Positions 1,030 to 62,881 of a DNA stretch of 64,000 bases are shown here, piece after piece. The notes under the pieces were generated by a model. It was not told the DNA's origin. It made no database searches and saw nothing but the letters and a program-made list of their open reading frames with translations. A program made the translations under genes and the position numbers. Position 1 is the first letter of the stretch. The number at the start of each line of letters is the position of its first letter. Source of the stretch: Diplonema japonicum (Eukaryota > Protista > Euglenozoa: Diplonemea); assembly GCA_964019335.1 (NCBI GenBank), contig OZ025699.1, positions 434,001 through 498,000 on the forward strand. The letters run 5' to 3'.

Positions 1030-1349
1030 CGAAGAAAACCGGCTGTGTAGACGAGGGCCACGTGGCAACATTTCCCCCCATTTTTTCCCGATCCTAGAGG
1101 AGCAACTGCGAACTCATTGCATCCTCAACAGCTCGCTAGTTGGTTTCACGCCCAAGCTGCTGATGAGAAACTACGACGGGCCTAAGGCACTACCACGACA
1201 GAAAGGATCAAACACTAGATGAGTTGATTGTCGTTAGGCGATCCTGTCACATAGGTTCCCTTCAAAGACATCTTTTTTTTTTTTTTCTTTTTTCTCCCCA
1301 TAGGGCGGCCCTCTAGCGGGGGGCTTGTCCTGTACTTTGAGTTTTTTTT
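1030..1349 (+). mobile_element. Divergent 3' remnant related to the poly(T)-tailed non-LTR element
   Basis: 1302-1349 AGGGCGGCCCTC..GGGGG.TTGTCCTGTACTTTGAG(T)8 matches the 3' terminus at 58966-59043. The upstream peptide SLVGFTPKLLMRNYD loosely resembles the ORF2 C-terminus. The 5' boundary is approximate. Confidence 0.6.
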
Positions 1350-1727
1350 GTCGATTTTTGTAGTGTGCCTTCTTTCCTAAAAAGGTAAAGAGGGATAGAT
1401 GACGCAAACTTCGACACGTTTCTTTCTTTCTTCTACCCCTTGGTGTAGCTCCGGATGGGCATCTTTATCTTGATAGAAAGACAACTTTCTCCCTCTTCCT
1501 CCTCTCCTTGTTAGCAACGGTGATGACCGGTGATTCCATCAAGACTACCCGTTCTCCAGCGTGCTGCACAAGGTCATGGAGACAGAGGCATGCATCCTTC
1601 AGCGCAGAAGGGGAGCGACATCCGCTAGGGCAGATAGAAGTTACTCGTTACACAAATGCTCCCTTTTTTATTGTAGTTTTATCCCTTCTTATATTGCACC
1701 CTATCATATCACTCCAGGTTTCTGACC

Positions 1728-4700: not shown

Positions 4701-7700
4701 CGGTGCGTGCAGCCAGGGCAGGCATTCTATAACAACAGTACTGAGGAGGGGAAGATGGTCCTTGCATTAGTTTCGAAGCTGCTTGACGTAAGTGAGCACA
4801 GGGGGCCTGACATCGTCGAGCTGAAGAAAAAGGGCAACAGTGCGATCTTTGTGACAGCGACGAAGCCGAGCGAGAAGTGGGAGCTGAGGTTAGAGATCCG
4901 GCAGGATGGGGGGCACAGGGGCTTTGCGGTGAGGAATGAAGGGGCACAAGTTCTACACCACATGCTAAAGAAGAAGGTGCGGCTCAAACGGATAGACCTC
5001 CGGAACAACCAGATTGACAACGAAGGGGCAGCTCAGCTACTGCTGGGCCTACGTGCGAACCCCCACGTGGTGCAGCTCACCATCACCGACATCGCTGGGC
5101 ACCTGCCGAAGGACGTCCGTGTTGTAGAAAAGAGGATGGCGAAGATCCTCAGCAACGTCAAACCACTGAAGGTTACCTGCCTCGCAGCTGCCGTCTTGCT
5201 CGCGAGCAGGGAGCTGCTACGAGTTGGACCGGTTGATAACACGTCAGCAGCGCTGCTGCGAAACAAAGAAGATCTCCTTCTTCAGACACAGCAGGTAATC
5301 AACATGCGTTGCCTGCATCACAAAGGCACTATCAAACCGGACCTGCTTCAGCTCGACTTCGGGAAGAACTGGCCGTACTACGCGGCGCTTGCCTTCTGGG
5401 ACCTTGAGGTGCTCGACATCGACTTCGGAAGCCTGTTCGACACCCAGAGAGAGGGAACCATCTGCTTCATCCAACATCTAGCCGTAAGGTGCTCCCTGTC
5501 AGGGAAGTATCCAAAAATGCCCGGTGCGTTGGTGGCGGCATGCAGAACAGTCGACTGCAAGACGCTTGACATACTGCTGCAGATGGGGTGCAGCCCTGGC
5601 GAAACAGACGGGTACGGCGAGACGCCACTGCTTAAGCTGGAGAGGAGGGCTAACTTCTTAAAAGACAAAGCAAAGATGCTGATAAGACTGCACGTGTGCC
5701 TCAAGAACCTTGCACCACGCTGCGTGCAATGGGGGGACGTCGAGTGGCAGCTGAAGAACTTCGCACTAGAGATGGTACGCGTCTGTGAAGCAAAAGACCG
5801 GGAGGCAAAGAAGGAAGTCTGTCTTTTAGGCGAGCTGTGCCGGAACCTCCGTGTCGACAGCAGGACATCTGTTGCGGACGTGCTCCGCAGCCACGTGAAA
5901 ACTCTGGAAAGGGATGCAAAACAGTGCACCCACATGAGCAAGATACCCGTGGAACGGATTAACACAACACTGCTGTCCTTAGACCTATTCGCATCTGATG
6001 GCAGGGATCTCGACGTCATACTAAAACAAGACATACAAGAAAAGTCCCGCCCCACAGGCCGTAGACAGAACCCACTGCACATCGAGAAAATAAAGCAAAT
6101 CCTACAGCCAAGCGATAAGACAAACAGGCTATCCGAAGAACCGTGGATCCACCGCTACCAAGTGTCAGATCGGGCCAAGCTGCTGTGGGGAACCTTCGAG
6201 GCTGAACTGGGCGTGCCGAAGCTGTGCCTCCACGGCGTGTACCTGTTCGAGTTCGAGTATGCAGAGTACAAGAAACAGACGGGCGGGACGGAAGATTGGG
6301 AACACTGCCCTGCTAAAGAAACAGGCCCCGAAGAAACAGGCAGACGCAAAGTGCCATTGTACGATGGTGATTCCATGACGTTCGCGGAGTTCAGCGGGAA
6401 ATTGTGGGACGACTGTGCAAGGGAACCAGCACAGATCAGGAGGCTTAACAATCAAGGGTTCTACGTCTTCAAGCATGATTGGGCAGAAGAGGACATCGCC
6501 GTGTTTGGGGAGTGGGCAAACGGGAAGGAAGAGACACCACCGCCTCTGAACAGCACCATTCGGTCGGTGCTGCTGGAGCCGTCACAAAACCTCTTCAGCC
6601 CTGATGTCTACGGTGGGAAAACAGCTCTGGACAAAAGCGTAAAAATGCTCGACAAATGGGCCAAGACGTGGGCGGTCCTGAATAGCACGCTCTCCTTTTG
6701 TGAAGAGCACGACGAGTTGCAGCTGCACCGAACGCAACGTGATGTCCCGCACCTTGTTGTCTTCCACCACATGAAGCTAATTAAAGGGCAGGTCTTTGGG
6801 CTGCCCGAGACATCGATGTGGGAAGTAGAGAAGAGGAAATGCAAGTCTAAAAAAGGGAAATTCCTTCCATACCGATACTTCGAAAGCGACAAGGAATGGC
6901 GGACGGCGTTGAGGAAGTGGACGGAAAAAGGCTGCAGGGGCATTGCGCTTGACAAGGACGAGTTTGGTATGCACCTGCTGTTTGGCGAGCAGGCGGACCC
7001 TGAGATACAAAATCTGTTCACATGCACCATCCTCACGGCACGTGCTACGGTCGTCATTCAAAGAGACCTGCAAGGCATCGAAAGGGACAGCATCCCAGAA
7101 GCGAACTGGACCCCGAAGTACTTACACAACGAAATTTTGAACAAATGGGTTCACGGTTCTTTGTTCGATTTACAAGAGGTTCTGGACACGGCATGGGGCG
7201 AGAAAGATCCCTTCCACGAAGCCTTGCGTTCAGCCGTCCTGTTGGCAGTCGCGTGCAAAGACGACTTCGGCTGTGCCATGCGTGAGGCCATACGCACGGT
7301 GTGCGACGAGGGTAACCTTTGCAACCCTTTTTACGAAGTCTTGTGCCAAGCAATCCACGAAGCATGGGACAAGGCAGAGCCGGAGAGCAACTGGACCGAA
7401 AAGACAGATGAAGGAACGTGCAGCACCATTCGGTTCATCGCGAGAGGGAAATTCCGGGGAGCCTTCATCACAAACTTCGGTTCCAACAAGGACCACCGCA
7501 AAGGCGATGTGCTGCTGCCTGCCCTAGAAACATTCTTCGTAGAAGACGTGACAATGATGGGAAACGTGCTGACCATTCGGCTCATAGCAAGGGGGTCCAT
7601 GCTCAACAACGACCCCGAGCTGGCCTCATGGTGCCGCGAAATAGGCAAGCGGCTCATAAATTCAGCTGAGGAGCAGCTTAGCGAGTCGAAGCCGATCCTT

Positions 7701-9494
7701 TCTTTACAGGACCCGCCAAGCCCATCTACTCGTGCTGCCTTCAGGAAGACATCAGTGGGGCCAGACGCGGTGCTGTACTTCAGTGCAGCGTGTGAAAGCT
7801 TTTCGGCAGGACAGCGTGCGGACCTCGTTGAGGACATCGAAAAAATCCTGGCGCCCGTCAACAAGTTTGGCAACCACACCAACTCTTCAGCAAGCGGCTC
7901 CTCATTGTGGAGCCACGCACGTGTCGTGGCGAAAGATGGGCAGAAAGCCCTACCGATTACGTACCGTCTTAGCTACACGTTCCTTTCTATGTTGGGTAGG
8001 GAACCCAGGGGGGCTGCAGAAGATTGCCCGTCTGCTCCACCTGTGGAATTCGGTGATTTAATGGAAAAGCCCAGCTCGACGGTGATAGAGATAAGTGCCA
8101 AAACCGTTGAAGAGGTGCATGATAAAGAGAATGCCAACATGGAACTCGACCCCGTGTACGATCAGCTTGCTGAAAAACCACCCCCTGCAGCGGAGGTGTA
8201 CGGCGACGGGGTCTTCAAGATCACTGTTGGCGAGCTACAACAGCTTGTCAGGTCAACCATCGTGACGACGTCCGCTTCGCTGCCCCAAAAGTTCTATGAA
8301 CACCTTGTGGGCCGTTTCACCTCGCACCCGAAATTCATGCATTTCTTCACTGTGTTCCGAACGTCCCCCTTGATCGATATCTGGGGGAAATGGAAGGCCT
8401 GTCATATCAGGCATCGCCAGCTTGCAGGGGAAGAACTGGAAGCACTTAAGAAAGCTGAAAGGAGGACTTCGAAAGAAGACCACGAGGGGATGTACATGCA
8501 CAGAATGCTGCAGAAAGCCGCTGAGAGAGACCTTGAGTTTCTGAAACAAGGGAACTTGTTGACAAGGTTGTACCAACAACCTTTCAGCAAATGGGTTCAG
8601 AGCGTGCTGGAGACCCCCGCTACATACGGGTTCACCTCACACGAACACGCTGTGCTAACACTCAACAAAACCTTGATGGAGCTGTCGACGGAAGTCTGCG
8701 TCTCCCAAAAGGGGCACTTCTTCGTCTCTGGAAGCCATTCAGGGAAGTCCAACCACATTGCAGAGAAACCCCCGCGAGCTGTAACATTCCTCTCAGCACC
8801 AGGACTTGACTTCCGCACTGTGCAACCGACACTAAAGGAAGCAAACAAGTACTTCCAGCGAATCAAAAAAGGCGATGCAGACGAATCAACGTGCCCCCAC
8901 AAGGGATGGAGCTACTTCAAAGAAGGCAAACGGAAGGAGTTTTGCCTGAGGGTGAAGGAGCTGTATCGGTGTATCTTTACAGCAGCAAGAAAGCAAGGTG
9001 TCCGTAATATGTGCATGCTGAATCTGGGGTTGGGTGCATTCCTCGAGAATATCAAACCTATCTTGAAGCCCGAGATCGTGAAGGAGTATTGCAGGGCACA
9101 GTTTGAGCTTTTATGCGAAGAAGATTGGGGCTTCGAGAACTACTTCCTCAACGCTGCCGCCTTTACAACCACTGCAAGTAACATCCTCGACAGACTACAA
9201 TCACACCTGAAGTGCAACCTTATTTTCCATGACAAGGACGTGAAATTCCTTGCAGCACACCTCGCAAAGCTGGGATTGACCTCCTCATTCCTGAACCCCT
9301 CCGACTCTCAAGCAGTGATGCAAGGCTGCATGGGCATGTACTGGGAATTAGGCAGGTCCTCCTCAACTTATGTTGGAGAGGAAGATTGGGCAGCTACCTC
9401 AACAGGTGTCCTGTCATGCTTCTCAATCTCCCACAGATCAATTGGTTTGGTTCGAAGGGGTGATGATGAAGAAGAAACCCAGGAGGATGATTAG
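1728..9494 (+). CDS. 2588-aa multidomain protein: Dpy-30/RIIa-like docking helix, R-S-E ADP-ribosyltransferase, Zn finger, RI-type LRR, ankyrin-like repeat, degenerate second ART, C-terminal macro-like domain
   Basis: Long intronless ORF preceded by a pyrimidine tract + CAG (1717). ART motifs: CYRG (R at 3882), WSSFSSTS (~3942-3965), REEEWLYPLNTRF (from 4071). Also CSLC..H..C, LKRIDLRNNQIDNEGA, DGYGETPL, and C-terminal SAPGLDF / NLGLGAF. Confidence 0.9.
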   Translation: MPFAGSLRPRYCQKSKLKEYVAEKRILLLINELTDELLKTMPKDPRAHLTAYLQQGTIPKERKAQRCTGDLLKEELRSAWLGCGGNLELFKQALPAEVKTKWEGHVALQVPRARSVTKSKFEAPPETESGVDPLMRPVQLVPDGYQPPCDIFQIVSDLSTWHFPSRKLWPQTAIARIEQNCRNIGQRHNYGEPLEVAIPLYIYSITVYRDVVWAVWTVTGSDEHARWSLTTRDSFTSLEAFFKKNDQTLPADATKYATSPMQAVVARQGLTLFEEVKPCCLKSVVYLSRYEMKATEVNNEASPLADTVAWLPPPCCILNKTLTLPPPGVLEYLYSRRSIEETSMYEDTADSFRSEPLFKKNPIFATLERCLRKNGERDLTKTIHNQLKELALHEGYANDVVDLISECFDDDDDDDSEECSTREQLRTLLEKEECNLQVTNLIEDCLDQHNQQEYSQDIYERLVVLLRSNRKIERVKKLIEMKLGPKTKNTPTPLQIAHSLDINTITWGGRTLNAALSGSCFYIDGDRDVFPDPIRLFRVDHPYEEQPYYHLNATMRCLQENKTATTFEMSSASANEYSIVDDVFVARPDTVLGTGLKCLSKVAKTPKARTCLTKLLEHKWQCSLDSTTRSVHYHFDHKYNHAKSADQYFDTTTHEGVGWYLLPDNVKVTGSFTSGAWLYQQVKPLLYYVDSAMKNMSRTIASTGWVCAPPEGERAKCYRGLKGTKLNRNVYDRGNVVVWSSFSSTSSDQGIAYSYAAGGNASVFIIRGKACRLIAPWSRFGREEEWLYPLNTRFQVQSLLTEEQKKILGRSDLQVFEISEVDETGAELIKVRGCLAKADTKEAMGVVFAASTALEDGNGVLDLALNDQNDGVTQAKWIYTIAVSFDPQGHCPIFTSDITKVCCPTTAKELLNKTGFMTEKKTKMILEPDTDVNLQEPEAGLANKPNRLAQSNMARPTRHRRARRAFFSGSIVECSLCGVKIKERHSEQHRKRCVQPGQAFYNNSTEEGKMVLALVSKLLDVSEHRGPDIVELKKKGNSAIFVTATKPSEKWELRLEIRQDGGHRGFAVRNEGAQVLHHMLKKKVRLKRIDLRNNQIDNEGAAQLLLGLRANPHVVQLTITDIAGHLPKDVRVVEKRMAKILSNVKPLKVTCLAAAVLLASRELLRVGPVDNTSAALLRNKEDLLLQTQQVINMRCLHHKGTIKPDLLQLDFGKNWPYYAALAFWDLEVLDIDFGSLFDTQREGTICFIQHLAVRCSLSGKYPKMPGALVAACRTVDCKTLDILLQMGCSPGETDGYGETPLLKLERRANFLKDKAKMLIRLHVCLKNLAPRCVQWGDVEWQLKNFALEMVRVCEAKDREAKKEVCLLGELCRNLRVDSRTSVADVLRSHVKTLERDAKQCTHMSKIPVERINTTLLSLDLFASDGRDLDVILKQDIQEKSRPTGRRQNPLHIEKIKQILQPSDKTNRLSEEPWIHRYQVSDRAKLLWGTFEAELGVPKLCLHGVYLFEFEYAEYKKQTGGTEDWEHCPAKETGPEETGRRKVPLYDGDSMTFAEFSGKLWDDCAREPAQIRRLNNQGFYVFKHDWAEEDIAVFGEWANGKEETPPPLNSTIRSVLLEPSQNLFSPDVYGGKTALDKSVKMLDKWAKTWAVLNSTLSFCEEHDELQLHRTQRDVPHLVVFHHMKLIKGQVFGLPETSMWEVEKRKCKSKKGKFLPYRYFESDKEWRTALRKWTEKGCRGIALDKDEFGMHLLFGEQADPEIQNLFTCTILTARATVVIQRDLQGIERDSIPEANWTPKYLHNEILNKWVHGSLFDLQEVLDTAWGEKDPFHEALRSAVLLAVACKDDFGCAMREAIRTVCDEGNLCNPFYEVLCQAIHEAWDKAEPESNWTEKTDEGTCSTIRFIARGKFRGAFITNFGSNKDHRKGDVLLPALETFFVEDVTMMGNVLTIRLIARGSMLNNDPELASWCREIGKRLINSAEEQLSESKPILSLQDPPSPSTRAAFRKTSVGPDAVLYFSAACESFSAGQRADLVEDIEKILAPVNKFGNHTNSSASGSSLWSHARVVAKDGQKALPITYRLSYTFLSMLGREPRGAAEDCPSAPPVEFGDLMEKPSSTVIEISAKTVEEVHDKENANMELDPVYDQLAEKPPPAAEVYGDGVFKITVGELQQLVRSTIVTTSASLPQKFYEHLVGRFTSHPKFMHFFTVFRTSPLIDIWGKWKACHIRHRQLAGEELEALKKAERRTSKEDHEGMYMHRMLQKAAERDLEFLKQGNLLTRLYQQPFSKWVQSVLETPATYGFTSHEHAVLTLNKTLMELSTEVCVSQKGHFFVSGSHSGKSNHIAEKPPRAVTFLSAPGLDFRTVQPTLKEANKYFQRIKKGDADESTCPHKGWSYFKEGKRKEFCLRVKELYRCIFTAARKQGVRNMCMLNLGLGAFLENIKPILKPEIVKEYCRAQFELLCEEDWGFENYFLNAAAFTTTASNILDRLQSHLKCNLIFHDKDVKFLAAHLAKLGLTSSFLNPSDSQAVMQGCMGMYWELGRSSSTYVGEEDWAATSTGVLSCFSISHRSIGLVRRGDDEEETQEDD

Positions 9495-11778: not shown

Positions 11779-11919
11779 TTTCATTCCAGTGATTTTAGCT
11801 ATTTTTTTTTTCTTGCTTATTTCTTCTCGTTGATGTCAGGTTCGGTTTCGGTTTCACTGTGTCTTATTGCTGAAGCACACACGCAGCAGAGACCCATCTT
11901 CTGTGGTTTCGTGTCCCTT

Positions 11920-12025
11920 GGAGTCCAGAAATGGAACATCCGTTAAAATTGGATCGATACAGAGAAGATTAGCATGGTCCCTGCGCAAGGATGACACGCA
12001 TTAATCGAGAAAGTATCACCTTTTT
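11920..12025 (+). ncRNA. U6: U6 spliceosomal snRNA
   Basis: ACAGAGA box (11959-11965), AGATTAGCATGG, CCCTGCGCAAGGATGACACGC internal stem-loop, 5' TCCA-GAAA-TGGA hairpin and a T9 terminator at 12021-12029. The 5' end is approximate. Confidence 0.95.
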
Positions 12026-12169
12026 TTTTCCCGAAAATGCTGCCAAGGGCTTCGGTTCAATTTTAGCTGACTCAATCTTTCTTCGTTGTCGTTGCAAATC
12101 GTTGCAAAACATGGCCAAGCGTCGGAAGGATGAAAGTTTTTCATTTGCTTGGTTGTGTTTCAGGGGGGC

Positions 12170-12312
12170 ATCCTTGCGCTCGGGAAGAAGCCATAGGCAA
12201 TGACCTAACAGGGACGCCATGGTGAGATTGCTGGTTGAAAACTACCCAATTACCCGCTTGTCAGCACTACGGTGCTGTTCAAGCAATTTCTCAAGCTGCT
12301 TCTGAGCAGTTC
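12170..12312 (+). ncRNA. U4: U4 spliceosomal snRNA
   Basis: 5' ATCCTTGCGC..GGGA is complementary to the adjacent U6 (stem II). K-turn-like 5' stem-loop (AATGA..GA), TGCTGGTTGAAAACT (stem I), 3' hairpin GCTTG..CAGCAC-TACG-GTGCTG..CAAGC, Sm-like AATTTCT (12285), terminal hairpin, then T7. Confidence 0.88.
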
Positions 12313-17995: not shown

Positions 17996-18200
17996 CATCT
18001 TCGCCACCCACTCCACGCACGACAAGCTGATGGAACTGAAAGCCGCTTACAAGCGAGACCGCATCACACGACTCCGCAAGACGCTCAAGGCCTCGATTGG
18101 AACGAAAGCAATGCTCCAGAAGGGGTGTATAAATAGATAGCCCCCCCCAACCCACCCAAGGGCGGCCCTCCATGAGGGGGTTTGTCCTGCACTTTGAGTT
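17996..18200 (+). mobile_element. 5'-truncated copy of the non-LTR retrotransposon 3' end
   Basis: Near-identical to 58803-59007 (one substitution seen by eye). TTATTCC occurs on both sides as a candidate target-site duplication. Confidence 0.93.
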
Positions 18201-19362
18201 ATTCCCCTTTTTCTTCTGTAAGAAGTGTTGGGCATGTGAGGCAGACGATCACCTTGGTTATCATGCTCAGCTACATTCTTTCCCCCCCCTTTTTTTTTCT
18301 CTCCCCTTTTCTTTTTCTCCCCCCCCCCTTATTTTTTTAGCTTAAAGACTGTTATTGCAGGCCTTTCGTTTTTTAAGATGAGCAACTCCTCCCTAAGCGA
18401 GTTGCTTTGAAACTGGGTGTCAACACCCTGACATGAGGACCTTTAAAAATTCTAGGGCCGGAGTTGCTGCAAGGGATTGACAACCGCTAGCCTCCAGGCC
18501 CTTGCAGTAAGCAACTCGTGAAGAACATTGTTGGCTTACCGGGGACATTATCTGACCCATGAACACAAACAGCGCAATGAGGAATGCTGTGCACCCCCCT
18601 TTTTTTATTCCATGTCTCTCACTTCTTGTTACAAGTCCCTGTTGCCACCATGGAGCCTGCACAGTCACAAAAATAGTGGCCCCAAAAAAAAGAAACAAAA
18701 TATGGTCAAGAAAAAAAAAAAAAAAAAAAAACACTAAACCAGGCCACTAAAAAACCTTTTGGGAATCGTGTTTTTTTTGACAAAATAGTAGTGAAATAAT
18801 GGACCATCTTATTTATCCCACTTGTCACACACTAACGTTTAGCAAGAAGACTTCCCCCCCCTTTTTCTTTTCTCTTCTCCCTCCTCCTCTTCCCGTGGTT
18901 TTGACCTTTTATTTCCTTGTCTTCCTCGCGGCTTTTAAACACATTACAGGAAGAAAGAAACAAATGTCGCGCTGTGGAGCCTGAGAAGAACAAGCAAGAG
19001 GAGAGGCTCGGGCATGGCCTTGTACTGAAAGGTGCAAGGGCATTCGTGGCGGGATCTGCTCTGTCACGAGCCGAACACATGCCATTTGGTAATCAAGCCC
19101 AAGACGCCTTCACGGCGACCGGTGGTGGGGTGTCCTCGTGCAACTCTCAGAGATTCTAGACGGGTAGGTATTGTTGACGATATACAAGTTGAAACTGGGC
19201 CAGCCGGCGCTGGCTGAAATGGACTGTACAAAGGCATGGACCTCGTGATTGGCGTTGAAATAAGGATTTTGAAATCGACCTTTCAGCATGTTGCCGAAGT
19301 GAAAATTCGAATAAAACAGTGCTCGGTGTCGGTGCGTTCTTGCGGGAGCCCCCCCCCCCCCA

Positions 19363-51512: not shown

Positions 51513-52220
51513 ATGAACAATGAAAAGCTTGGAAGGATCCTTCAAGAAATCTTCGGCGACAAGTTGAACCGTGTCGGTGGCGGCAGGTGGATGGCTCTGC
51601 TTGAGGATGGCTTAAAGTTCCAGTGCATGACTGACGAAAGGGCAGACAGAATGCGTTTTATCGTACCGGTGATGCCCGTGGGTGGCGCACCCAATGAGTT
51701 CCTCCAAAGGCTGCTCCAAGCAAGCTTTCACTCAGCACTGGACGCAAGATACGCAATAGCCGATGGCCTTGTATGGTCATGTTTCATCCACCCCTTAGGA
51801 AGCCTTACTGAAAGCTTTGCTAAAGATGGTGTAAAGCAGGTGCTGAAGCTAGCCCACACCACGGGTTCTACCTATTCTAGTTGTGATTTGGTTTTTGTAG
51901 GATCCGTGGAAAGGGGTGAAGCACCCAAGGCGAGAAAGACGGCTTCGGAAGCTTTTGAGGCCGCTGTACAGACTCTCAAGCCGGAGGTCCTGAACGCACC
52001 GCCTCATCTTTGCGATCCGCTGACTTTTGAGCTGCTTCAGGACCCGGTTCTGATCCCTTCCGGGCACACCTTTGAAAGGGCCACCATTATGGAGCATATT
52101 GCAAGGTTTCACAACAATCCTTTCACCAGAGACCCGCTCAGCGTGAGCGACCTGACGCCCAACAGGGCCATCCAAGAAGCGTTGTCGGAGTGGTCTGGGT
52201 CGAGCGAAATGAACCGGTGA
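51513..52220 (+). CDS. Bacterial CesT/YbjN-like chaperone domain fused to a U-box (putative E3 ligase)
   Basis: N-terminal DRMR..LLQASFHSALDARYA..WSCFIHPL..TYSS; C-terminal PPHLCDPLTFELLQDPVLIPSGHTFER..PFTRDPL..LTPNRAI. Confidence 0.85.
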   Translation: MNNEKLGRILQEIFGDKLNRVGGGRWMALLEDGLKFQCMTDERADRMRFIVPVMPVGGAPNEFLQRLLQASFHSALDARYAIADGLVWSCFIHPLGSLTESFAKDGVKQVLKLAHTTGSTYSSCDLVFVGSVERGEAPKARKTASEAFEAAVQTLKPEVLNAPPHLCDPLTFELLQDPVLIPSGHTFERATIMEHIARFHNNPFTRDPLSVSDLTPNRAIQEALSEWSGSSEMNR

Positions 52221-52222
52221 TG

Positions 52223-52256
<34 letters not shown>

Positions 52257-52258
52257 CC

Positions 52259-52297
52259 AACCAACGATTCTAAAGCTACAGTTTCTGTACTTTATTG
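52259..52297 (+). other. SL: Complete 39-nt spliced-leader (mini-exon) sequence
   Basis: AACCAACGATTCTAAAGCTACAGTTTCTGTACTTTATTG has the euglenozoan SL length and the conserved CAGTTTCTGTACTTTATTG 3' half. The AACCAACGAT start is the diplonemid type as I recall it. Confidence 0.93.
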
Positions 52298-52504
52298 GTG
52301 TCCGACCGTGCCAATAAAGTTCACACAGCAACGGTTTGAAAAGAAAATACAAATATTGGAAGTTGAAGCGCGACACAGATCAGCAACGTAAAGGAGAAGA
52401 GAAGAGAAGAGAAGAGAAGAAAAATCGAGTCATATCAGATCATATCAGATCATATCAGATCACAGCAAACACATTGACAATCTAAGCTACCGCGTCAGTC
52501 TAAG

Positions 52505-54737
52505 ATGGACGTTCACAAAGCTTTGAAGGGGTACGGGATGACAGCCCGCGGGAAGGGGTACCGGATTGGAAACGGAAACTCCTTCTACGGAGTGGTCGGA
52601 GAGAAGACGGGAAAGAAGGGGAGCGACGTTAGGCGCCGCATGATACAAGAGCTGCGAGGAAGCGAGGAGTACCGGGCGAGTGTCATCGGAGACTACGACC
52701 TGTACTGCTCCCAGCACGCCAGGGAGGGGACCGCCGCGGACCCGGTTACCATCCAAGCCACCGCCCGCGCACTGAAGACCGACATCCACCTGATTACGGC
52801 CGACGGCGGCGCCCTCATCGTCTCCCCTATCGTGGGAGAGTCCAAGTCCAAGAAGCAGCCCATCCACGTCGCCTTCGACGGCCGGGCATACCTCAACGCC
52901 ACGGAGCCGTTCAACGTGAACGTGCTGAAGAAAGCTATGCAGCAGTTCAAGCTGCCACGGGTCGGGATTCCAACCTCAGACGGAGAGGCGAAGGCATGGA
53001 GGGGACCGAACAGCAAGCCACCACGGAAGGAACCGCAGGCAAAGAAATGCTGGCTCCTCGAGCAGGGACAGTTCGACCTACCCTTCATAGAGTGGGAAGA
53101 GCTGGTGGCAGGAAAAGATGGCATAGCCATCGCGACCGAGGTCAACGTGGAGGAGGCAGAAAAGATGTCCTGGGACGGGAACAAGGCAGTCCTCCTCAAC
53201 GCAACGGCAAGGGTCGATACGAACACGACGTCGTGCTCAAGGCGGCTGGAGAGTACTCGAACAGGACAATGTTCTTGCACGTACTGAGCGGAAAGATCTC
53301 GCGCTCTCAAAAAAACAAAAACACGGTGGGTATTGACCTGGCCGCGATGTACACGCGGGTAGCTTTCGTCGTCTCGAAGACGCACACCCCAGCCCAGACA
53401 TGGGAGAGGGTGACCTCCGAACCCCGGAAGCTGGTCCAGGAGATGCTGGGCTGTAGAACGATCCACAGGATCGACAAATACGTGGATGGACCGGCCCCAA
53501 GGGTTGACGTGCTCGTCACGATCGCAACCGAGAACCGCCGCCGCCTCGTAGGTGCATCCGGGAAGATGGGGGTCTTCGTCAAGCCGAAGGACGTGGAGAA
53601 GTCCCCTGTCGCCTGGCTCCCGAAGGAGATCACTCTGGAAGAGGCACTCGAGCTGGCGGAGACTGAGAAGCAGGGGTTAGCGCTGCGCGAATCCGACGGC
53701 CGTCTCGGGGTGAGGACATCGGAGGAGAGGAAAACCACGCTCCTCGACAAGGTATTAGGCGAGGAGGAGCGACAACGCGGGCAGCATGGGGAGCCCAGGT
53801 GGCGTTTGTCGGGACTGTACGGGCAGTGCGGAGCCGAACACGTTGAGGCGATACTCGAGGCGATTAAGTGGGAGGCCACGGCGGATGGTGCAACAGCATG
53901 AGGTGCTGGTACATCCGAGGGGGCGAACCCCCAACCACGTCACTGAAGATCACGTCCCCAACTGGGCGGGTCCTCAACTGCAGGATAGCTCCCGACGTTA
54001 GAAACCGACCCGCCAAAAAGACACCGCCAGCTCAGTCCTGGGGAAGGCCGAAAACGGGGACCACAAACAACGCGGGCAAGTCGTACCTCGGAGCAGTGAC
54101 GGGGTCCTCTCAACCAGACCACAAACCACCAGCTTCAGGAAAGAAGGTTGCCCCTGCGGGTAAAGCCGCCCCACCGAAGTCCGGTAAGTCGCCCACAACA
54201 TCGAAGAAAGCCGATCCCCCGGCCTTTGAGGACCGCCTCACAGCAATCGAAAACGCACTTCGTAAACTAGCAGGGGAACCGGTCAGCGACGTCAAGCCGC
54301 CGGCTGAGGTGGTCAGTCTACGGAGGGAGAACGCGGAGCTACGGGAGGAGGTCCGGCAGATGCACATCCAGATGGCCGCGCTCACCGAGCAAATTAAGAG
54401 ACTCACGGAAGCGACGCTCTCGAAGCCCGTCCCCGGGAACCGGGCCCCGATGATGCGCCCTGCTGCCGGGGAGGAGATGATGGACGACTCCGAAGATGAC
54501 TTGGGTCCCCCCCCAACTGACGATGACACCGACATCGACCTGGACGAGGGCCCCGCCGACATTGACGACTGCCTGGGCAAGGGCATCTGCCACGTCTACA
54601 ACGGGACATATCAATGCTGGAAGGGTGTATGCCACTACTGCGGCGGGAACATCACAAAGAGCAACCCAGCACAGACCTGCATATTACCAGACTGCAAAAG
54701 GGTAAAATGCCGCGGGTGCGAACAATGCGAACAATGA
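52505..54737 (+). pseudogene. Retrotransposon ORF1 (OTU-like N-terminus, coiled coil, Cys-rich C-terminus), two frameshifts
   Basis: Three overlapping ORFs (52505-53287, 52996-53901, 53868-54737) join by frameshifts near 53215 and 53880. Coiled coil LRRENAELREEV; terminal CHYC..C..C..C..C cluster. Confidence 0.75.
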
Positions 54738-54830
54738 CTCCATGAGGGCTCCCCCCAAACCCACCCCCCAAACCCATTCCCTCCGCCCCGTTCCCATCCT
54801 TCCAAATACAATCCGATACGCTTATCTGAC

Positions 54831-57800
54831 ATGAAATTTGAACGTCTCACCGAACAGGGTATCGAACCCCACCCCGGACCAGAGCCAGAACACGAGAAAT
54901 TCACCATTTTCACACACAACGGCTCATCACTTAACAACAGGCTGAGCGAGTACTCCACCGTCCTCCCGGACGCATTCTGCATCCAGGAGACAGCCCTCAC
55001 GGCTCAGACGCAGCTGGAAATCGAACACGTGCTGAGAGACGATGACTGGGGCAAACGATACGCCAGATTCTGGAGCAAGCCACAGCCAGGCAGGGAGTCC
55101 AGTGGTGTCACATCTCTGACGATAGCGAAAGCAAACGGTGGCTTCACCTGATCAACGTCTACTGCCACTCGGGCCAGGACCAAGCCAAGACGAAATACCG
55201 TGAAGAGCTTCTCCACTACATCCTTTGCCGTCTTAAGTTCGAACTGGGAGACGTGCCTGTGGCCGTGGTGGGCGATTTCAACACGGACGAAGTACGATCC
55301 CCCACGTTAAGGAAAGCTATACAGACAGACTGGGTAGACGCCGCTGCGTTCTGTGCAAGAAGGGATGGTGTGCAGGCGGAGGACACGTTCGTTAGGACCA
55401 ACTGCAGCACGAGGATTGACAGGGTCCTGCTGAATAACATCGCGGCCCAAGGTCTCGAACATTGCGGAGTAAGCGATATGATCACCGGGTCGGACCACCG
55501 ATGCTTGTCGGTGACACTCAACATCCCAGCTTTTCGTCAAGAAGTCCTGAGGTACACCATCCCACAGGAGATACCGAAGACCAAGAAGGCGCCTGGCGAG
55601 GTGGCGAAGGCACTGATGCAGAAGTCGAGGTACCGGGAGTTCATAGCAGCACAGGAGCCCACCGAAGCTTTCTCGGAGATATCAGACCTCGCAGAGGAGT
55701 ACCTATTACATGGGTACAAGGGGCCGACGCGCAGCGTGTACACCGGGAGAGGCAAAGTACGGGAACCTACGAAATCGGAGCTAAGTGCGAGGTCGGCGGA
55801 GTCGGCGGTCGGAGCGGCATCGAACAGACAACAAAGACTGGAAAAGCTGAAGCACAAGATCCGCAGTGCGCAACAGCAAATGCTAAGGCTTTATGAAAAC
55901 GGACACTGCGGTCCGCTGCCGGTAGAGTTACGGAACGTCCTCAGAAATATTGCGACACTAGGAGAAGAACTGAAGGTTGACAACTGCCAGGTGGACGCGA
56001 CAGGGGGTATCGACGGCATCAGGGAGGAGCTGGACATAGCAGAGGACTTCGCTCAGGGAATGCTATCAGAGCTACTCCAATACCGCAAGAGAACGCAGAC
56101 GAAGGCCTACGAACGCTCAGTCCGTGCTGACTTTGGGAAAGAACGCAAGCACATCACAGCCTGGGTCAGAGACCGCCCAAACCAGAGAACGGACGTGGTT
56201 GAGGTAGCAGACGGAGGGGTGACGGCGAACCTACAGGAAATGGACAAGGTGATGCGGAACGCGTGGTCGGGCGTCTTCTGTGCGCGAACACCCGAGGAAG
56301 AGCCACAGTATGAGCGGTTTGCACAACGTTACGGGGACCTGATCAAGAAAGCCCCAATGGCACGGACTCCCATCACAGCAGAACAGCTGAGGGAAGTGAT
56401 CAGGAAGAAGCCGGAGAAAGGAGCATGTGGCGTGGACGGTTGGCGGATGAGTGAACTGAAGCGTCTCCCAACGAGCATCCTGAAGGCTTTCGCAGACCTC
56501 TTCAACCTGATCGAGGAAACAGGCCAGTGGCCGAGACAGATCACGACAGCACTGGTGTCCCTGATTCCGAAGGGTGAGGGGTCAGCACCACTGAATCATC
56601 GTCCCATCACAGTGACCAGCACCATCTACCGCTTGTGGGCGTGTACGAGGCTGAAGGGTGTCTTGACTGGCAAGAACGCTGGATCACGCCGAGACAGCAC
56701 GGGTTTCGACCCAAACACAGTACGACAACTGCCCTCATGGAGTTATGTACCAAGCTGGAACTAGCTCTGGTGGAAGGAGAACCGCTGGAAGGACTAGCCC
56801 TAGACTTTCGGAAATGCTTCGATCTAGTGCCACAACGGCTGTCTCTCGACCTCATGGACGCCCTGGGGATGGACCAATCCATAGGGAGAGCACTCCAAGG
56901 GATGTACACCCAAATCACAAGGAGGTTCAAGTACCCCATAGGAGTGGGAGAAACATTTGAGACAACGAACGGAATTCTCCAAGGATGCCCCCTGTCAGTC
57001 ATCGTCCCCTGTCAGTCATCGCCCTGTCAGTCATCGCCCTGTCAGTCATCGCCCTGTTGTCCATCATGGTGCGGGCAGTCGAGCAAGTCGCGCCAGACGC
57101 CGAAGTGCTAGCCTACGCTGACGACGCATACCTGCTGGCAAAGCTGCGTGGCTCACTACAAGCTGCGGTCAATGGGACATTGGAGTTCTGCGACCTGACG
57201 GGGATGGAAATCAAGAGAAGACTGTTGGTTTCGGCACTGCTGAAGATTTCAAGTCGAAAGTCATAGGAAACCGAACGGAGATGAGGAAAGGCTTGGAGGT
57301 CGCGGTACCCTACAAGACGGTGACAGACCTCTGCGGACTGGGGGTGAAGATCAACAGACGCAGGACAGGAACGACGTGGAACAAACCGACCACGGGGGCG
57401 CTTGGCTCGCTGGACCGACTGGGGGGCACAAGGATTGCTTTCGAAACCAAAGCACACTTGGTCAGCACGACGGTCCTGCCATCTTGCCTATACAGTGGGC
57501 CGTTCTCCCCTCCATGTGATGAGGCACTCAAGAAGCTAACGACGAAGATCACTTGTAACCTGTGGGGCCCTCATCACCGTGGACGGTCGCCCACCGCGGT
57601 AAACACAGTCCTGCTGAAGGGGCACACCAATGACCCCCTTTCCTACGTAATGTACCACTCCCTGAAGGTAGTATCCGGAGCACTCGATGACAGTCGGCTA
57701 CGGCAGAGATGCATACAGATCGCTGCGGGGTATGACGCGGGTTCCATCCCGATGGGGCCGGTTGGCAACCTGGTCTGCCGGTGGCTTCCCCGAATAGGAT

Positions 57801-58947
57801 GGAGTTGGGCGCAGCTACTAGGTTGCAACACATCTTGGGCCGAACGCGGACACATCTTTAGAGAGGTGGTGAGGAAGGCCCGAAGTAGGACGCTGGCGGT
57901 CGAGAGGAGCACGATAAGCGGGATAGAGCCGGGGGCGGACCCCAAGACGAACCGATTATGGAGGACGGCCAAGGACCCGCTCATGTCCTACAGCCTGAGA
58001 CGAGTGATCGCAGGAGGGGTTCCCTACCTAAACCCGCACGCAAATGCGAAGCGAAAGAGCGTCCCACTGGCGCCTGAAGGTGACGACAACGGTGACGACG
58101 AGGAGAACATGGGCCAGGCACCAACGACGGAGGTATCGCACACGCAAGGATTCAGATGCGACCTGTGCAAGTCTCCACACCCGGACACGGTGACCTTACT
58201 CCGCCATCAGCTGTATGAGTGCGCCTGTGCACAAGAGGAACTGGCACTAGACGGAATGGAGCCGTTGCGCAACAGATCAGGATGGCCCCTATGTCTGGAG
58301 CTGCACGCGATACTGCCGAGGGGGCATGTCTTCGCACACCTGGAGAAGCTGCAGCAGTACATGGCTGTGGTGGTCGGGAAACGGGATGTGGAGCTCATGC
58401 AAATAGACAACGCCAGCACACAGCCGCTGCCGTGGGTACGCAATGTGGAGGGAAGGAGATGCCTCGTGCCAACGGCGGGGGAGCTCGAAGGAGTGGGAGG
58501 AATCGTCGCAGAATTCTTGAACCCGCTGCTGCAGTGGTTGTCACAGCTACGATGGGTGAAGGAGGACACCAGCTCTGAAGTGTCAGCGGTGGAATTGGCC
58601 ATCGACTTCGAATGGACGACAGGCAAGTTACTGGGAGGTCTGCTGGAAGATAGGGCTCGCAAGATCATAGCACTGATAAGAAAGCTGAACGCGGCATGCA
58701 GGGCACGGAAGAAGCCACGCCCCTTCCCAGCAGATGAACAGAAGAGAGTGAAGTCCCTCATCGCAATAGGTGGGAAGACGGCTATGGGTTCGCCAGGAGG
58801 CCCATCTTCGCCACCCACTCCACGCACGACAAGCTGATGGAACTGAAAGCCGCTTACAAGCGAGACCGCATCACACGACTCCGCAAGACGCTCAAGGCCT
58901 CGATTGGAACGAAAGCAATGCTCCAGAAGGGGAGTATAAATAGATAG
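54831..58947 (+). pseudogene. Retrotransposon ORF2: 2A-like peptide, AP endonuclease, reverse transcriptase, CCHC-like knuckle; multiple frameshifts
   Basis: APE motifs THNG, CIQET, LINVY, VVGDFN, RIDRV, SDH. RT motifs GVDGW, LIPKG, RPITV, QHGFRP, LDFRKCFD, GILQGCPLS, YADD. CDLC..H..C knuckle. Frameshifts near 55140, 56660, 57005, 57250 and 58790. Confidence 0.92.
56990..57051. repeat. Four tandem copies of CCCTGTCAGTCATCG within the RT
   Basis: 15-bp unit with 2 extra nt after the first copy, causing a frameshift just after QGCPLS. Confidence 0.9.
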
Positions 58948-59002
58948 CCCCCCCCAACCCACCCAAGGGCGGCCCTCCATGAGGGGGTTTGTCCTGCACT
59001 TT

Positions 59003-59045
<43 letters not shown>

Positions 59046-59738: not shown

Positions 59739-62008
59739 ATGGGGCTCACCGACGAGCAACAGGACCTGATGGAGGAGAGCTGGAAGATGGTAAACAGCGC
59801 GGGACTCGACCAGCTGGGCTTCAGGCACTACAAGATCCTGGTGCAGATGGGCGGCGACGAAATCAGAACCATGTTTATGTACACCCATCTGGACAGACAG
59901 CAGAAAATGCTTATATCAACAATGAAATGGATGATGTTCAACGTGAATAACTCGGAAGGGCTGAGAAGGCTAGCCCTATACCACGCGCACCTAAAGGTCA
60001 CCGAAAGACTTTTCGGACTATTTGGAAAAGCCTTCATCGAGGCCATGAAGGAGACGGTGGGTCCTCAATTCGACCTTAAGTACCAAACAGCTTGGGCTAC
60101 TGCTTATCAACTCATCGCCGACTCTTTCGTGAAATTTTTAAAAGTGTATGGGGAACAAGTAACCCGCGCTGCGAAGGAAGAAGAAGAAGTCGCAAAACGA
60201 AATACCTACAACGAGCTACGAAACTATTTTAGAGACGAACGGGCAGAGAATTTTCTCGCCTTGTCGGACAAAGAGGGTTCCGTGTACGTCTCTCAGTACG
60301 AGCGGGAGCAGCTCCCCACATCAGTGGAACAACACGACAGGACCATGTTTCGAAAAAGGTGGTTGGTTCTAAGAGGCAGATACCTTTACATCCAGAAGAA
60401 AGAGAACCAACCTCCTCAAAACATTCTCGACTTGGGCTATTGTTCACTTGAGGACACCTCTACCCCCGGTGGAAGGCTTCCCTCCCCATCTCCCTTTTCA
60501 TTCGCGCTAACCGACGATACCGGCATGGTCACGTATTTCCTACTATCTGGTGACGATGAAAAAGAAGTCTGGGGGCAGATTCTACTCCAGGTCCTCTCAA
60601 GATTTTATTACTTAAGAGAGGCTGTTCCAAGATCAACTGGTGTGTTGTCCATCACCGTGTTAGGCGAAGAACTCATACCGAAAGAATTTTGTGAGGATGA
60701 TTTTGAAATGCTTGTGCTTATAGGTAAAGGGACCTTCGGCAAGGTGTACAAGGTGAAGGAGGTTGCCACAGGGAAGATCTATGCGGTAAAGGTGTTGAAG
60801 AAATCCGCATTGAAGCGCGAGTCGCAGATCACAGACCTGAGAAACGAGAAGGGGATCTTGCTAAACATCTCGCACCCGTTCATCGTGAAGCTGCATGCTA
60901 CCTTCCAGTCGAAAGACCGGCTCTTCTTACTATTCACCTTCCTCAGCGGAGGCGAGTTGTTCTTCCACATCCAACAGTCAGAGTCGTATTTCTCGGTATT
61001 TTTTTTTGGGGGGGGGACCAATGTTTCCAACCTCCCTGTGGTGGTTCCTGGTAATTGTGGTTTGGAGAAACACAAGCGAAAGGGAAACTCTCGTTCTAAA
61101 GCCGTACACGTGGGGAAACCTGAACGGGGGTGGAGAGCCCACCCTACGCGTGGCGCCAGTTAGCATCGCCCTCAACGGAGAGTCCCTTATCCCATTACAT
61201 CGAACAAGGAGGTGGCTTCACCAGGTCAGGCAAGTAGCCTCCCCGCGGCATCGTGCCAGTGAAGCTAGCCTCCCACAACTCTCTAGTTGGTGTTTAATTG
61301 CTTCTGTGGCCCCTCTCCCTATTTCAATTTCCAAGCTTTCTTTACCTCTCCACTTTTACTTTCTACGGGACCACAGGGGACTTGGGAGGCTTCGGGGCGA
61401 AGTTTCACAAGGGTGGCCGCTGTGTCACATACTGCATGGCACCACTAAAATCGAGACAACTTTTTTTTTTTTTTAAAGTCGATGGTGACCTTTAACGTTG
61501 ATCCTGACCTGCTGAGGGTGTGCCTGCTGAGGGTGTGCCTGCTGAGGGTGTGTGCCTGCTGAGGGTGTGTGCCTGCGTCCTTTTGGTGAACTCTTCCACG
61601 TACACCTTGTCAAGCTCCACACGGCCTCCTTCGCCTAAGTGCAGCACCACCATACCAGCATCCGTCAGCACGGAAGTCCCTAGGGATTCTGACTTTATCG
61701 TTTCCCGTCGCATCTTCTTTTCTTGGATCACCATCTTATAATTGTAAAAACCCCCTTTTTTTTTTTTTTTTTTGCTTACGCTCCATATTCGCTAATGTGA
61801 CCCGGCCTATGTCCTAAAAGGATTATAAATAAAGATAATTTGTTTCCCCCTCCCCCCCCCTCCCCCAAATAAAAAACCTTCAGGAAGCCAAGTCTCGTTT
61901 CTACATCGCCGAGACCGCGCTGGCGGTGTCGTACCTCCATGAGAACAACATTGTGCATCGTGATTTGAAGGCTGAGAACCTGGTGTTGAGCGCAGAGGGG
62001 TATGATTG

Positions 62009-62043
<35 letters not shown>

Positions 62044-62444
62044 CAGCCACGTGTGTTTGACCGATTTTGGCTTCGCAAAGACCATCGAGAAGGACGCGGT
62101 TCCAAACCAAACCTGTGGAACTCTAGCGTATATGGCCCCAGAGATCTTCTCGAAATCAGCAATGGGGTACGGACAGGAGGTGGACTGGTGGTCGTTGGGG
62201 GTCCTCTTGTTCAATATGCTAACCCTGTGCTACCCTTTCCTGAGGGCCACCACCATCGAGACTGTGACAGCCATCACCAGCGAACCGCTGAAGTTTCCAG
62301 AACAGCCCATTCTCAGCGAGGATGCCGTGGACTTGCTCATCCGATTGTTGACAAAACGGCCCAAAGACAGATTGACGGATATGAACGATATGAAGAACCA
62401 CCCGTGGTTCAGAGGCTTCGATTGGGAGGCGTGTTTGAGGTTAG

Positions 62445-62481
<37 letters not shown>

Positions 62482-62881
62482 ACAGGAAAGAACTTGCCCC
62501 ACCATTTGTGCCGATCTCGACAGGGCGGAACACGAAGTACTTCAGACCGTGTGAGAAGGGAACATCTTTGGCGAGGTGTGTTTCAATAAAAAACAAAAAA
62601 AAAAAAACAAAAAAAAAAAAAAAAAAAAATACAGCATTGCGCAAATAGAGGAACAGATGGAGTTGTCATCTTTTTTCGACGTTCACCAAACATATTTCAC
62701 GCAGCACGTGGTGGCTGCAGAGAAGGGGACGAGAGATGCCTTAAATTCTAAGATGGACATTCAGGGCCTGATGACCAGAGGAGAGGAGCTGAAGCGAAGA
62801 CAGGAGAGCGGCGAGGCAGAGGGTACAGAGACCATTGATAAGACGACCGGCGATAAAGTAACAGACAAAGAAAAAGAGTGA
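59739..62881 (+). CDS. Globin-PH-AGC (Akt/PKB-like) protein kinase; exons 59739-60995, 61884-61999, 62047-62439, 62486-62575, 62635-62881
   Basis: Globin (LMEESWKMV, RTMF, RQQKML, LALYH), PH (FRKRWLVL..EKEVW) and kinase (GKGTFG, AVK, HRDLK, DFG, CGTLAYMAPE, DWWSLG, PPFVP tail). Four GT-AG introns restore one continuous frame. Confidence 0.9.
60996..61883 (+). other. Intron 1 of the kinase gene (888 nt, contains GC-rich inserted material)
   Basis: GTATTT...AAATAAAAAACCTTCAG joins SYFS to EAKSRFYIAE in frame. Confidence 0.85.
61509..61577. repeat. Four tandem copies of CCTGCTGAGGGTGTG(TG)
   Basis: Visible 15-17-bp tandem inside intron 1. Confidence 0.85.
62000..62046 (+). other. Intron 2, 47 nt, poly(A)-filled
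   Basis: GTATGATTG(A)32CCTCAG; splicing gives AEG-HVCLTDFG. Confidence 0.92.
62440..62485 (+). other. Intron 3, 46 nt, poly(A)-filled
   Basis: GTTAG(A)36CACAG; splicing gives FDWEACLR-KELAPPFVP. Confidence 0.92.
62576..62634 (+). other. Intron 4, 59 nt, A-rich
   Basis: GTGTGTTTCAAT(A-rich)TACAG; restores the frame into the final exon. Confidence 0.82.

Follow-up and report, generated by a model that had tools for sequence, protein, structure and literature searches.

A 6.75-kb retrotransposon of Diplonema japonicum carries at its exact 5′ edge a complete 39-nt diplonemid spliced-leader (SL) exon and, just behind it, an antisense arm complementary to the leader end. We propose, at a probability of about 0.4, that leader end and arm form a hairpin in cis that would shield the SL|GU junction and a CAG close by from splicing and could so let leader-headed RNA survive at full length for copying. 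An earlier note on this DNA had offered three functions for the arm, namely masking of the junction, a recognition hairpin for reverse transcriptase (RT) or ORF1 protein, and recruitment of host SL RNA in trans; judging from predicted folds, masking appears the best supported of the three.

A broken LINE headed by a spliced leader

The element spans positions 52257-59005 of the window (the whole 64-kb stretch of DNA analysed) and lies between two T tracts, T31 and T38. Its parts, and two related fragments in the window, are the following.

52226..52256, + strand: T31 tract, the likely target site, matched by T38; a probable target duplication of undefined length
52257..52258, + strand: two surplus C at the 5′ junction, probably gained by addition or slippage during reverse transcription
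52259..52297, + strand: diplonemid spliced-leader exon, 39 nt, in DNA; single copy in the 64-kb window
52298..52504, + strand: A-rich 5′ untranslated region (UTR; 42% A, 207 nt) with more CAG sites and two short tandem repeats
52505..54737, + strand: ORF1, frameshift-broken, starting with a weak OTU-like domain that misses the Pfam cut-off (E 0.002) and ending in a Cys-rich stretch
54831..58945 (end approximate), + strand: ORF2, frameshift-broken, with AP-endonuclease (APE) and RT
58966..59005, + strand: 3′ end of the element, with a predicted GC-rich hairpin, conserved last 9 bases and no poly(A) tail
59006..59043, + strand: T38 tract behind the element; holds no SL
17996..18198, + strand: 5′-truncated family copy, 99% identity over 208 nt; a 7-nt flanking repeat is read as target duplication
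1297..1341, + strand: remnant of a related element, a short and diverged 3′ end (87% over 53 nt) within T-rich sequence

Six distinct SL gene loci from metagenomes and a genome bin (L008, L013/L102, L014, L072, L115 and L134) have the identical exon, and 39 nt is also the length given for the D. papillatum SL exon in the available text of its genome paper (PMC10161547). T31 starts 5 nt past the stop codon of a U-box gene. Native SL genes with the identical exon have T at −1, and a contig of public run X15 has one C after its T run.

Within ORF2, profile matches to Exo_endo_phos (E 1.9e-4) and RVT_1 (E 7.7e-7) both fall just under the cut-off. Five of the eight protein matches are APE-RT proteins, 34-39% identical and one of them with an OTU domain, and the APE domain precedes RT in the window and in five of six relatives scanned. 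For one relative (P0002) the best solved-structure match is LINE-1 ORF2p, with R2 a close second. ORF1 gave no match in a search among longer proteins, and RNase H gave none in 57122-58834 of this broken copy or in the five closest relatives. Judged by its sequence, with APE and RT behind ORF1 and a 5′-truncated copy bearing a target duplication, the element is an APE-type non-LTR retrotransposon (LINE), and the broken copy is a diplonemid LINE. At 54735-54870 ORF1 ends and ORF2 begins in a common frame, interrupted by a single TGA, and a sequence GIEPHPGP, 2A-like by the 2A consensus, stands before the endonuclease; L1Tc/ingi elements likewise have a 2A-like motif before the endonuclease.

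The 3′ hairpin and the same last bases recur at 58966-59043, 18159-18205 and 1297-1349, the last keeping the hairpin despite several changes. Both the truncated copy and the diverged 3′ end lie in T-rich sites and have the same orientation as the long host ORFs; such targets suggest priming on U-ended RNA. The ORF1 contig is 10-14 times as deep as the contig of the flanking gene (207.9 versus 15.3 in run X1, 986.3 versus 99.7 in X2), an excess that gives no copy number and is a sign of many copies. The window also has two long stop-free frames, at 1677-9494 (2,605 aa, including an ADP-ribosyltransferase domain of the ART family) and at 20062-41094 (7,010 aa).

A predicted hairpin across the leader junction

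The earlier note had described 52289-52298 as the exact reverse complement of 52311-52320 across a 12-nt spacer, with a donor-like GT on the 3′ side of the leader; both statements are correct, the GT being at 52298-52299. The partner of the arm is thus the last nine SL bases and the G behind them. The predicted stem comprises 12 pairs (10 Watson-Crick and two G-U) and an 8-nt loop. Extension by G-U pairs, also claimed, is predicted but weak, pairs 11, 12 and 13 having probabilities of 0.71, 0.46 and 0.06 when the 82-nt head is folded. The parts of the head are as follows.

52289..52300, + strand: 5′ strand of the predicted hairpin, the last 9 SL bases and the first 3 after the junction, with GT at 52298-52299
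52301..52308, + strand: predicted hairpin loop, its 3′ part conserved among variant heads
52309..52320, + strand: anti-SL arm, a 10-nt exact complement plus two G-U positions
52325..52332, + strand: second, degenerate complement to SL nt 23-30, including CAG 52326-52328, a possible acceptor 31 nt behind the GT

The assertion that such complementarity is unlikely by chance was borne out: dinucleotide shuffling of the 60 nt that follow gave a match of at least 10 nt to SL plus G in 42 of 20,000 trials, and shuffling of the 207 nt that follow gave one in 63 of 5,000. Among the 97 distinct SL|GT mRNA-like contig ends listed, 49 of which are of diplonemid type, the longest arm-like match was 7 nt, and none (0/97) was as long as that of the element. 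The 32-nt hairpin has a z score of −3.9 (0/200 shuffles as good), for a stretch chosen after the fact, whereas the wider region is not unusually stable (142 nt, z 0.55, 142/200 shuffles as good) and, with the SL held fixed, 439 of 2,000 shuffles were as good in folding energy. Because total folding energy is not unusual, the signal is one of position and register and not of stability.

Folded alone, the 82-nt head gives the arm a pair probability of 0.72, which rises to 0.93-0.96 once the whole 5′ UTR is included, while the SL internal hairpin, mutually exclusive with the arm, falls to 0.04-0.07. With the fold continued to 52700, adding 200 nt of ORF1, the probability for the arm drops to 0.01. 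The junction is paired at 0.999 in the element; the 97 mRNA-like ends have a median of 0.44 and reach 0.99 at most. The degenerate second complement, which the earlier note did not describe, lengthens the predicted stem to SL nt 23-30 past a 4-nt bulge; it also hints at a 5′ inversion, for which twin priming is a known route, and this was considered as an origin of the arm. The arm itself lies downstream of the SL joint and 8 nt upstream of a CAG, and no SL-to-CAG joint is among those listed.

The arm is kept while its flank drifts

Copies elsewhere were seen through contigs of public runs, which lose rare forms. Seven of 20 listed runs (X1, X2, X4, X6, X12, X13 and X15) were compared with the head; X1-X4 possibly include the window's own sample, and X13 and X15 are RNA by guess. 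Variant heads were found in X1, X2, X4 and X13. The arm is nearly invariant across these contigs while the 16 nt that follow its core vary by many indels: of the 17 difference rows listed, 14 belong to these 16 nt, one to the loop and two to the core (52311-52319). Of the two in the core, an A-to-G change at 52318 retains a G-U pair, and a deletion breaks the arm in one shallow X13 contig (depth 4.96, a possible error). Among the loose ends listed, some heads keep the core and then diverge (GAACCAG..., TCACTCAG...), with a CAG soon after in each, at roughly the position of the one in the window, and one variant head begins GTAT, as most native introns do. The earlier note had proposed conservation across copies as a check, and the outcome favours it; on this comparison of contigs, the arm is a family feature of the SL-headed LINE.

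The loop at 52303-52310 is conserved as strongly as the arm, so pairing is not proven to be the cause of the conservation. The difference rows listed hold no compensatory change, and none would be expected because the SL is invariant; the paired SL bases are, moreover, fixed by the search pattern. Searched more widely, the pattern of SL end plus arm matched four viral contigs, none with an SL, and none of 125 metagenome loci, and a 16-mer of loop and arm gave 17 viral matches with an SL upstream in 0/17. Rfam gave no family for the head at gathering threshold or at E up to 10, and none near gathering score in 52200-52520. Behind the metagenome SL loci listed, for which GT was required, no related element was found except for a weak RT-like match in L058.

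Proposed masking of the junction in cis

The masking model begins from heads in which the SL forms the very 5′ edge of an APE-RT element, with the complementary arm common to variant heads, and from a hairpin that is predicted to form in the 5′ UTR at the expense of the SL internal hairpin. SL-headed copies would themselves be the templates of new copies, since new full-length copies begin with the SL and its TG end makes no ordinary acceptor, there being no AG at the joint of an SL-headed copy. If they are, their RNA would meet the spliceosome with SL|GU unspliced. SL|GT and arm are probably permanent in the template RNA, because re-splicing at SL-internal AGs would leave duplicated relics, and none is listed. 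T31 as a pyrimidine tract for such re-splicing was set aside, as acceptors follow A tracts and no SL-relic joint is listed. By analogy, RNA could start at SL base 1 either from an internal promoter, as in L1Tc, or from masters behind an SL gene promoter.

D. japonicum introns are described, in the available text of PMC12621601, as having a G/GTATG donor, an A-rich tract and a CAG end, a median length of 41 nt and GT-AG termini in 98.3% of cases. The kinase gene of the window, at 59750-62880 and with globin, PH and protein-kinase domains, agrees with this pattern: frame continuity places in it three short introns (47, 46 and 59 nt) with donors GTATG, GTTAG and GTGTG and with CAG acceptors behind long A tracts. 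An open SL|GU is a likely donor because donors appear loose and the UTR, at 42% A, contains several CAG; with acceptors defined by A-rich tracts ending in CAG, an open junction and the A-rich UTR would be read as an intron. Also in the window are adjacent snRNA genes for U6 (11913-12026) and U4 (12170-12308), both on the + strand.

In favour of masking are the probability of the arm (0.72-0.96 in head and UTR), the near-complete pairing of the junction relative to mRNA-like ends, the placing of 14 of the 17 listed difference rows behind the arm core and of two within it, the agreement of the kinase-gene introns with the species pattern, and the burial of the junction in a stem in native SL RNAs too. 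The seven runs list neither an SL-to-downstream joint nor an SL-relic dimer, which is weak evidence as contigs lose rare forms. Against it, all 97 ordinary SL|GT mRNA-like ends do without such an arm, although these formed after splicing, and the GT has been kept although a single point change could abolish it. Descent or a protein site could account for a conserved block in which the loop is as constant as the arm. The pairing of 0.01 with sequence to 52700 and the one X13 contig with a broken arm also count against masking, as does the length of the would-be intron, which at 31 nt is below the 41-nt median.

Native SL genes and a possible origin of the arm

In 18 distinct native SL gene starts, stem-loop I is built from exon UGUACU and its pairing partner G|GUAYR, with UUAUU as the loop; native SL RNAs likewise place the junction within a predicted stem. 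The 18 were chosen for GTA, but in the unchosen list, too, all distinct internal matches listed begin GTA except L105 and the cut L091. The window head has GTGT after the exon and folds in a register other than that of native stem I, and its CAATAA occurs within 45 nt in none of the 18 native starts (0/18). By eye, it is also without the Sm-like U-rich site, last stem and T terminator that L008, L013 and L134 have within about 75 nt, and its SL, single in 64 kb, is not part of a tandem array. The earlier note had allowed that the arm might simply be the native stem-loop I of this species. The canonical form of that stem is ruled out, but a locus in run X12 partly agrees with the suggestion.

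X12 contains a third of the element's words. Upstream of its deep SL locus the sequence is constant, with T at −1; the locus starts at base 1 and reads GTAC after the junction (four of the 18 native starts have C at this position), features that make it a probable native SL gene. One loose end of the locus reads CAATAAA and gives a 9-bp duplex (−6.1 kcal/mol) in the same register as the element. The arm could then be a relic of an SL RNA gene, the founder having captured exon and intron start either by a template switch onto SL RNA or through masters sitting at an SL gene donor and using the SL promoter; it would descend from a pairing that already existed in SL RNA and may do little now. GTAC fits native stem I, the X12 locus aligns with the window head better than all but 122 of 5,000 shuffles, and the variant head that starts GTAT resembles most native introns. 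Without the arm core, however, the similarity is not significant (389 of 5,000 shuffles as good), and the X12 locus may be another element, because it is known from 30 bases and its alignment with six native introns is no better than chance. The absence of CAATAA from the 18 native starts and of an Sm-like site or T terminator from the head also speaks against such an origin, and the arm of the element is longer (10 exact) than that of X12 and persists while its flank drifts. We regard a relic as unlikely, if by no means far-fetched; it is compatible with masking in cis, since the two readings are not exclusive.

Possible pairing with host SL RNA in trans

The arm could instead bind the exon end and donor of an incoming host SL RNA and keep it beside the joint of the element, a fresh capped leader then replacing the embedded one through splicing at a non-AG acceptor or through a template switch of the RT. 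This would account for one exact SL per copy, and SL copies that are preceded by T-rich or other foreign sequence begin at SL bases 1, 2 and 3, although the arm is evident in only some of them. With native GUAU SL RNAs the arm would form 13 pairs (−15.5 kcal/mol), slightly better than in cis, with A-U where its own strand gives G-U; with a GUAC SL RNA the last pair would be C-G. In co-folding, the minimum was clearly the intermolecular duplex for three of six native SL RNAs (L008, L072 and L134). With self-structure counted, binding is nevertheless weak: net values of −7.2, −6.9 and −4.1 kcal/mol compare with shuffled means of −4.6, −5.1 and −4.1 (5, 12 and 62 of 150 shuffles as good), and a cis partner 12 nt away should win. 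The 98.3% of GT-AG introns (PMC12621601, available text) also argue against a non-AG acceptor.

The nematode Ur element offers a precedent. Ur is reported to pair with the donor region of SL RNA. The likeness lies in a pre-mRNA motif proposed to engage that region. In the part of PMC7668243 available, however, Ur of nematode operons has 6 nt and precedes its AG acceptor by about 50 nt, whereas the arm measures 10-13 nt and lies downstream of the joint with its cis partner adjoining. On these models, we consider trans capture rather unlikely, and still more doubtful the fuller proposition that the LINE pairs with SL RNA across the exon-intron junction and swaps in a fresh capped leader each cycle, so that pairing would replace a promoter.

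A possible site for ORF1p or RT, or a possible control of translation

A further function would be a 5′ hairpin serving as a site for ORF1p or RT, or as a switch that opens the SL internal hairpin and lowers translation of the RNA destined for copying. The conserved loop suggests a protein site, and the arm and the SL internal hairpin cannot form together. Joins of three different flanks to SL bases 24-25, close to the base of the extended stem, may mark pausing; they are equally explained by microhomology to T-rich targets, and the arm is evident in only some of them. The family has, moreover, a separate 3′ hairpin, and its 5′-truncated copies show the head to be dispensable for insertion. 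A role of this kind, read from predicted folds, seems improbable. Chance complementarity spread by descent would fit the ordinary total folding energy and a stretch noticed after the fact, but is very improbable in view of the 42 in 20,000 shuffles, the 0/97 mRNA-like ends and an arm kept while its flank diverges. Masking in cis is the reading we prefer, at the probability given above.

Leader copies in other DNA

The 237,777-bp giant-virus contig IMGVR_UViG_3300046534_001516 (loci L130-L133), which encodes VLTF3, an A32-like ATPase and Bro-N, has the exact diplonemid SL in its DNA at four places and a copy with three changes at a fifth. Each copy stands about 20 nt behind AAAA(T/A)TGA, which we take to be a giant-virus early promoter motif, and 35-65 nt before an ATG. 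These leaders point to a diplonemid host for the virus, and no report of a diplonemid SL in giant-virus DNA was found in the literature searched.

Two diplonemid-type mRNA contigs (L025 and L100) have a leader followed by a second leader copy from base 6, that is, relict leaders as in dinoflagellate retrogenes. Euglenozoan SL sequence was also seen in two bacterial genome bins, L134 (NZ_JABSOU010000224.1) and L135 (RFGH01000242.1). The contigs are likely contamination, because euglenozoan SL, including the whole diplonemid SL RNA gene that L134 represents, sits there in bacterial bins.

Relation to known systems

The head resembles stem-loop I of kinetoplastid and diplonemid SL RNA in having the same exon and an exon|GU junction predicted to lie inside a helix. 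It differs from native SL RNA in that the last 9 bases of the exon pair with a separate arm 12 nt on, and in that a LINE body follows.

Among retrotransposons, the CRE clade (SLACS, CZAR and CRE1/2) comprises trypanosomatid non-LTR elements with SL sequence at the 5′ flank, an RLE endonuclease, a poly(A) tail and insertion into SL genes, as far as the text of PMC12278014 available goes. The present element has, by contrast, an AP-endonuclease, T-rich sites, no poly(A) and no SL at its 3′ end. Identity with CRE/SLACS was rejected for the window copy, which has APE and, in T38, a 3′ flank without SL. L1Tc/ingi with their Pr77 head are likewise LINEs with APE and RT, found in euglenozoans that trans-splice, and their 5′ head is conserved too; the available text of PMC1874656 describes L1Tc RNA as starting at +1 from an internal promoter and as unspliced, and L1Tc DNA as without SL. 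The INGI clade is defined in PMC12278014 (same portion) by APE, RT and RNase H, the last of which was not found in the element or its five closest relatives; a further INGI feature is a Pr77 head or HDV-like ribozyme, and the Rfam comparison of 52200-52520 gave no match near gathering score.

Relict spliced leaders in the DNA of dinoflagellate retrogenes are a footprint of reverse transcription (PMC12014239, as excerpted). Those relicts tag host genes and decay, whereas in the element a whole, exact leader stands at the head of a mobile family and is followed by an antisense arm. The literature searched on SL-bearing retrotransposons and diplonemid elements showed no SL-headed LINE with an antisense arm, subscription papers and Repbase being outside this scope. 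The accessible part of the D. papillatum genome paper (PMC10161547) gives LINE and SLACS proteins and leaves element structure open.

Implications

In a trans-splicing host, a LINE has to acquire a defined 5′ end with a cap while its sequence neither grows nor shrinks from one round of copying to the next. Known euglenozoan answers are an internal promoter, as in L1Tc/ingi, and residence in SL genes, as in the CRE clade. The SL-headed family keeps one exact leader as its head, together with a conserved arm against the junction. The genome sequence of D. papillatum, and related APE-RT proteins in transcriptome sets, put a test within reach. If masking or pairing in trans is true, the head would be a testable module, either a natural block of a donor site or a natural handle on SL RNA, and such a handle would bear on the question of how an SL RNA meets its target.
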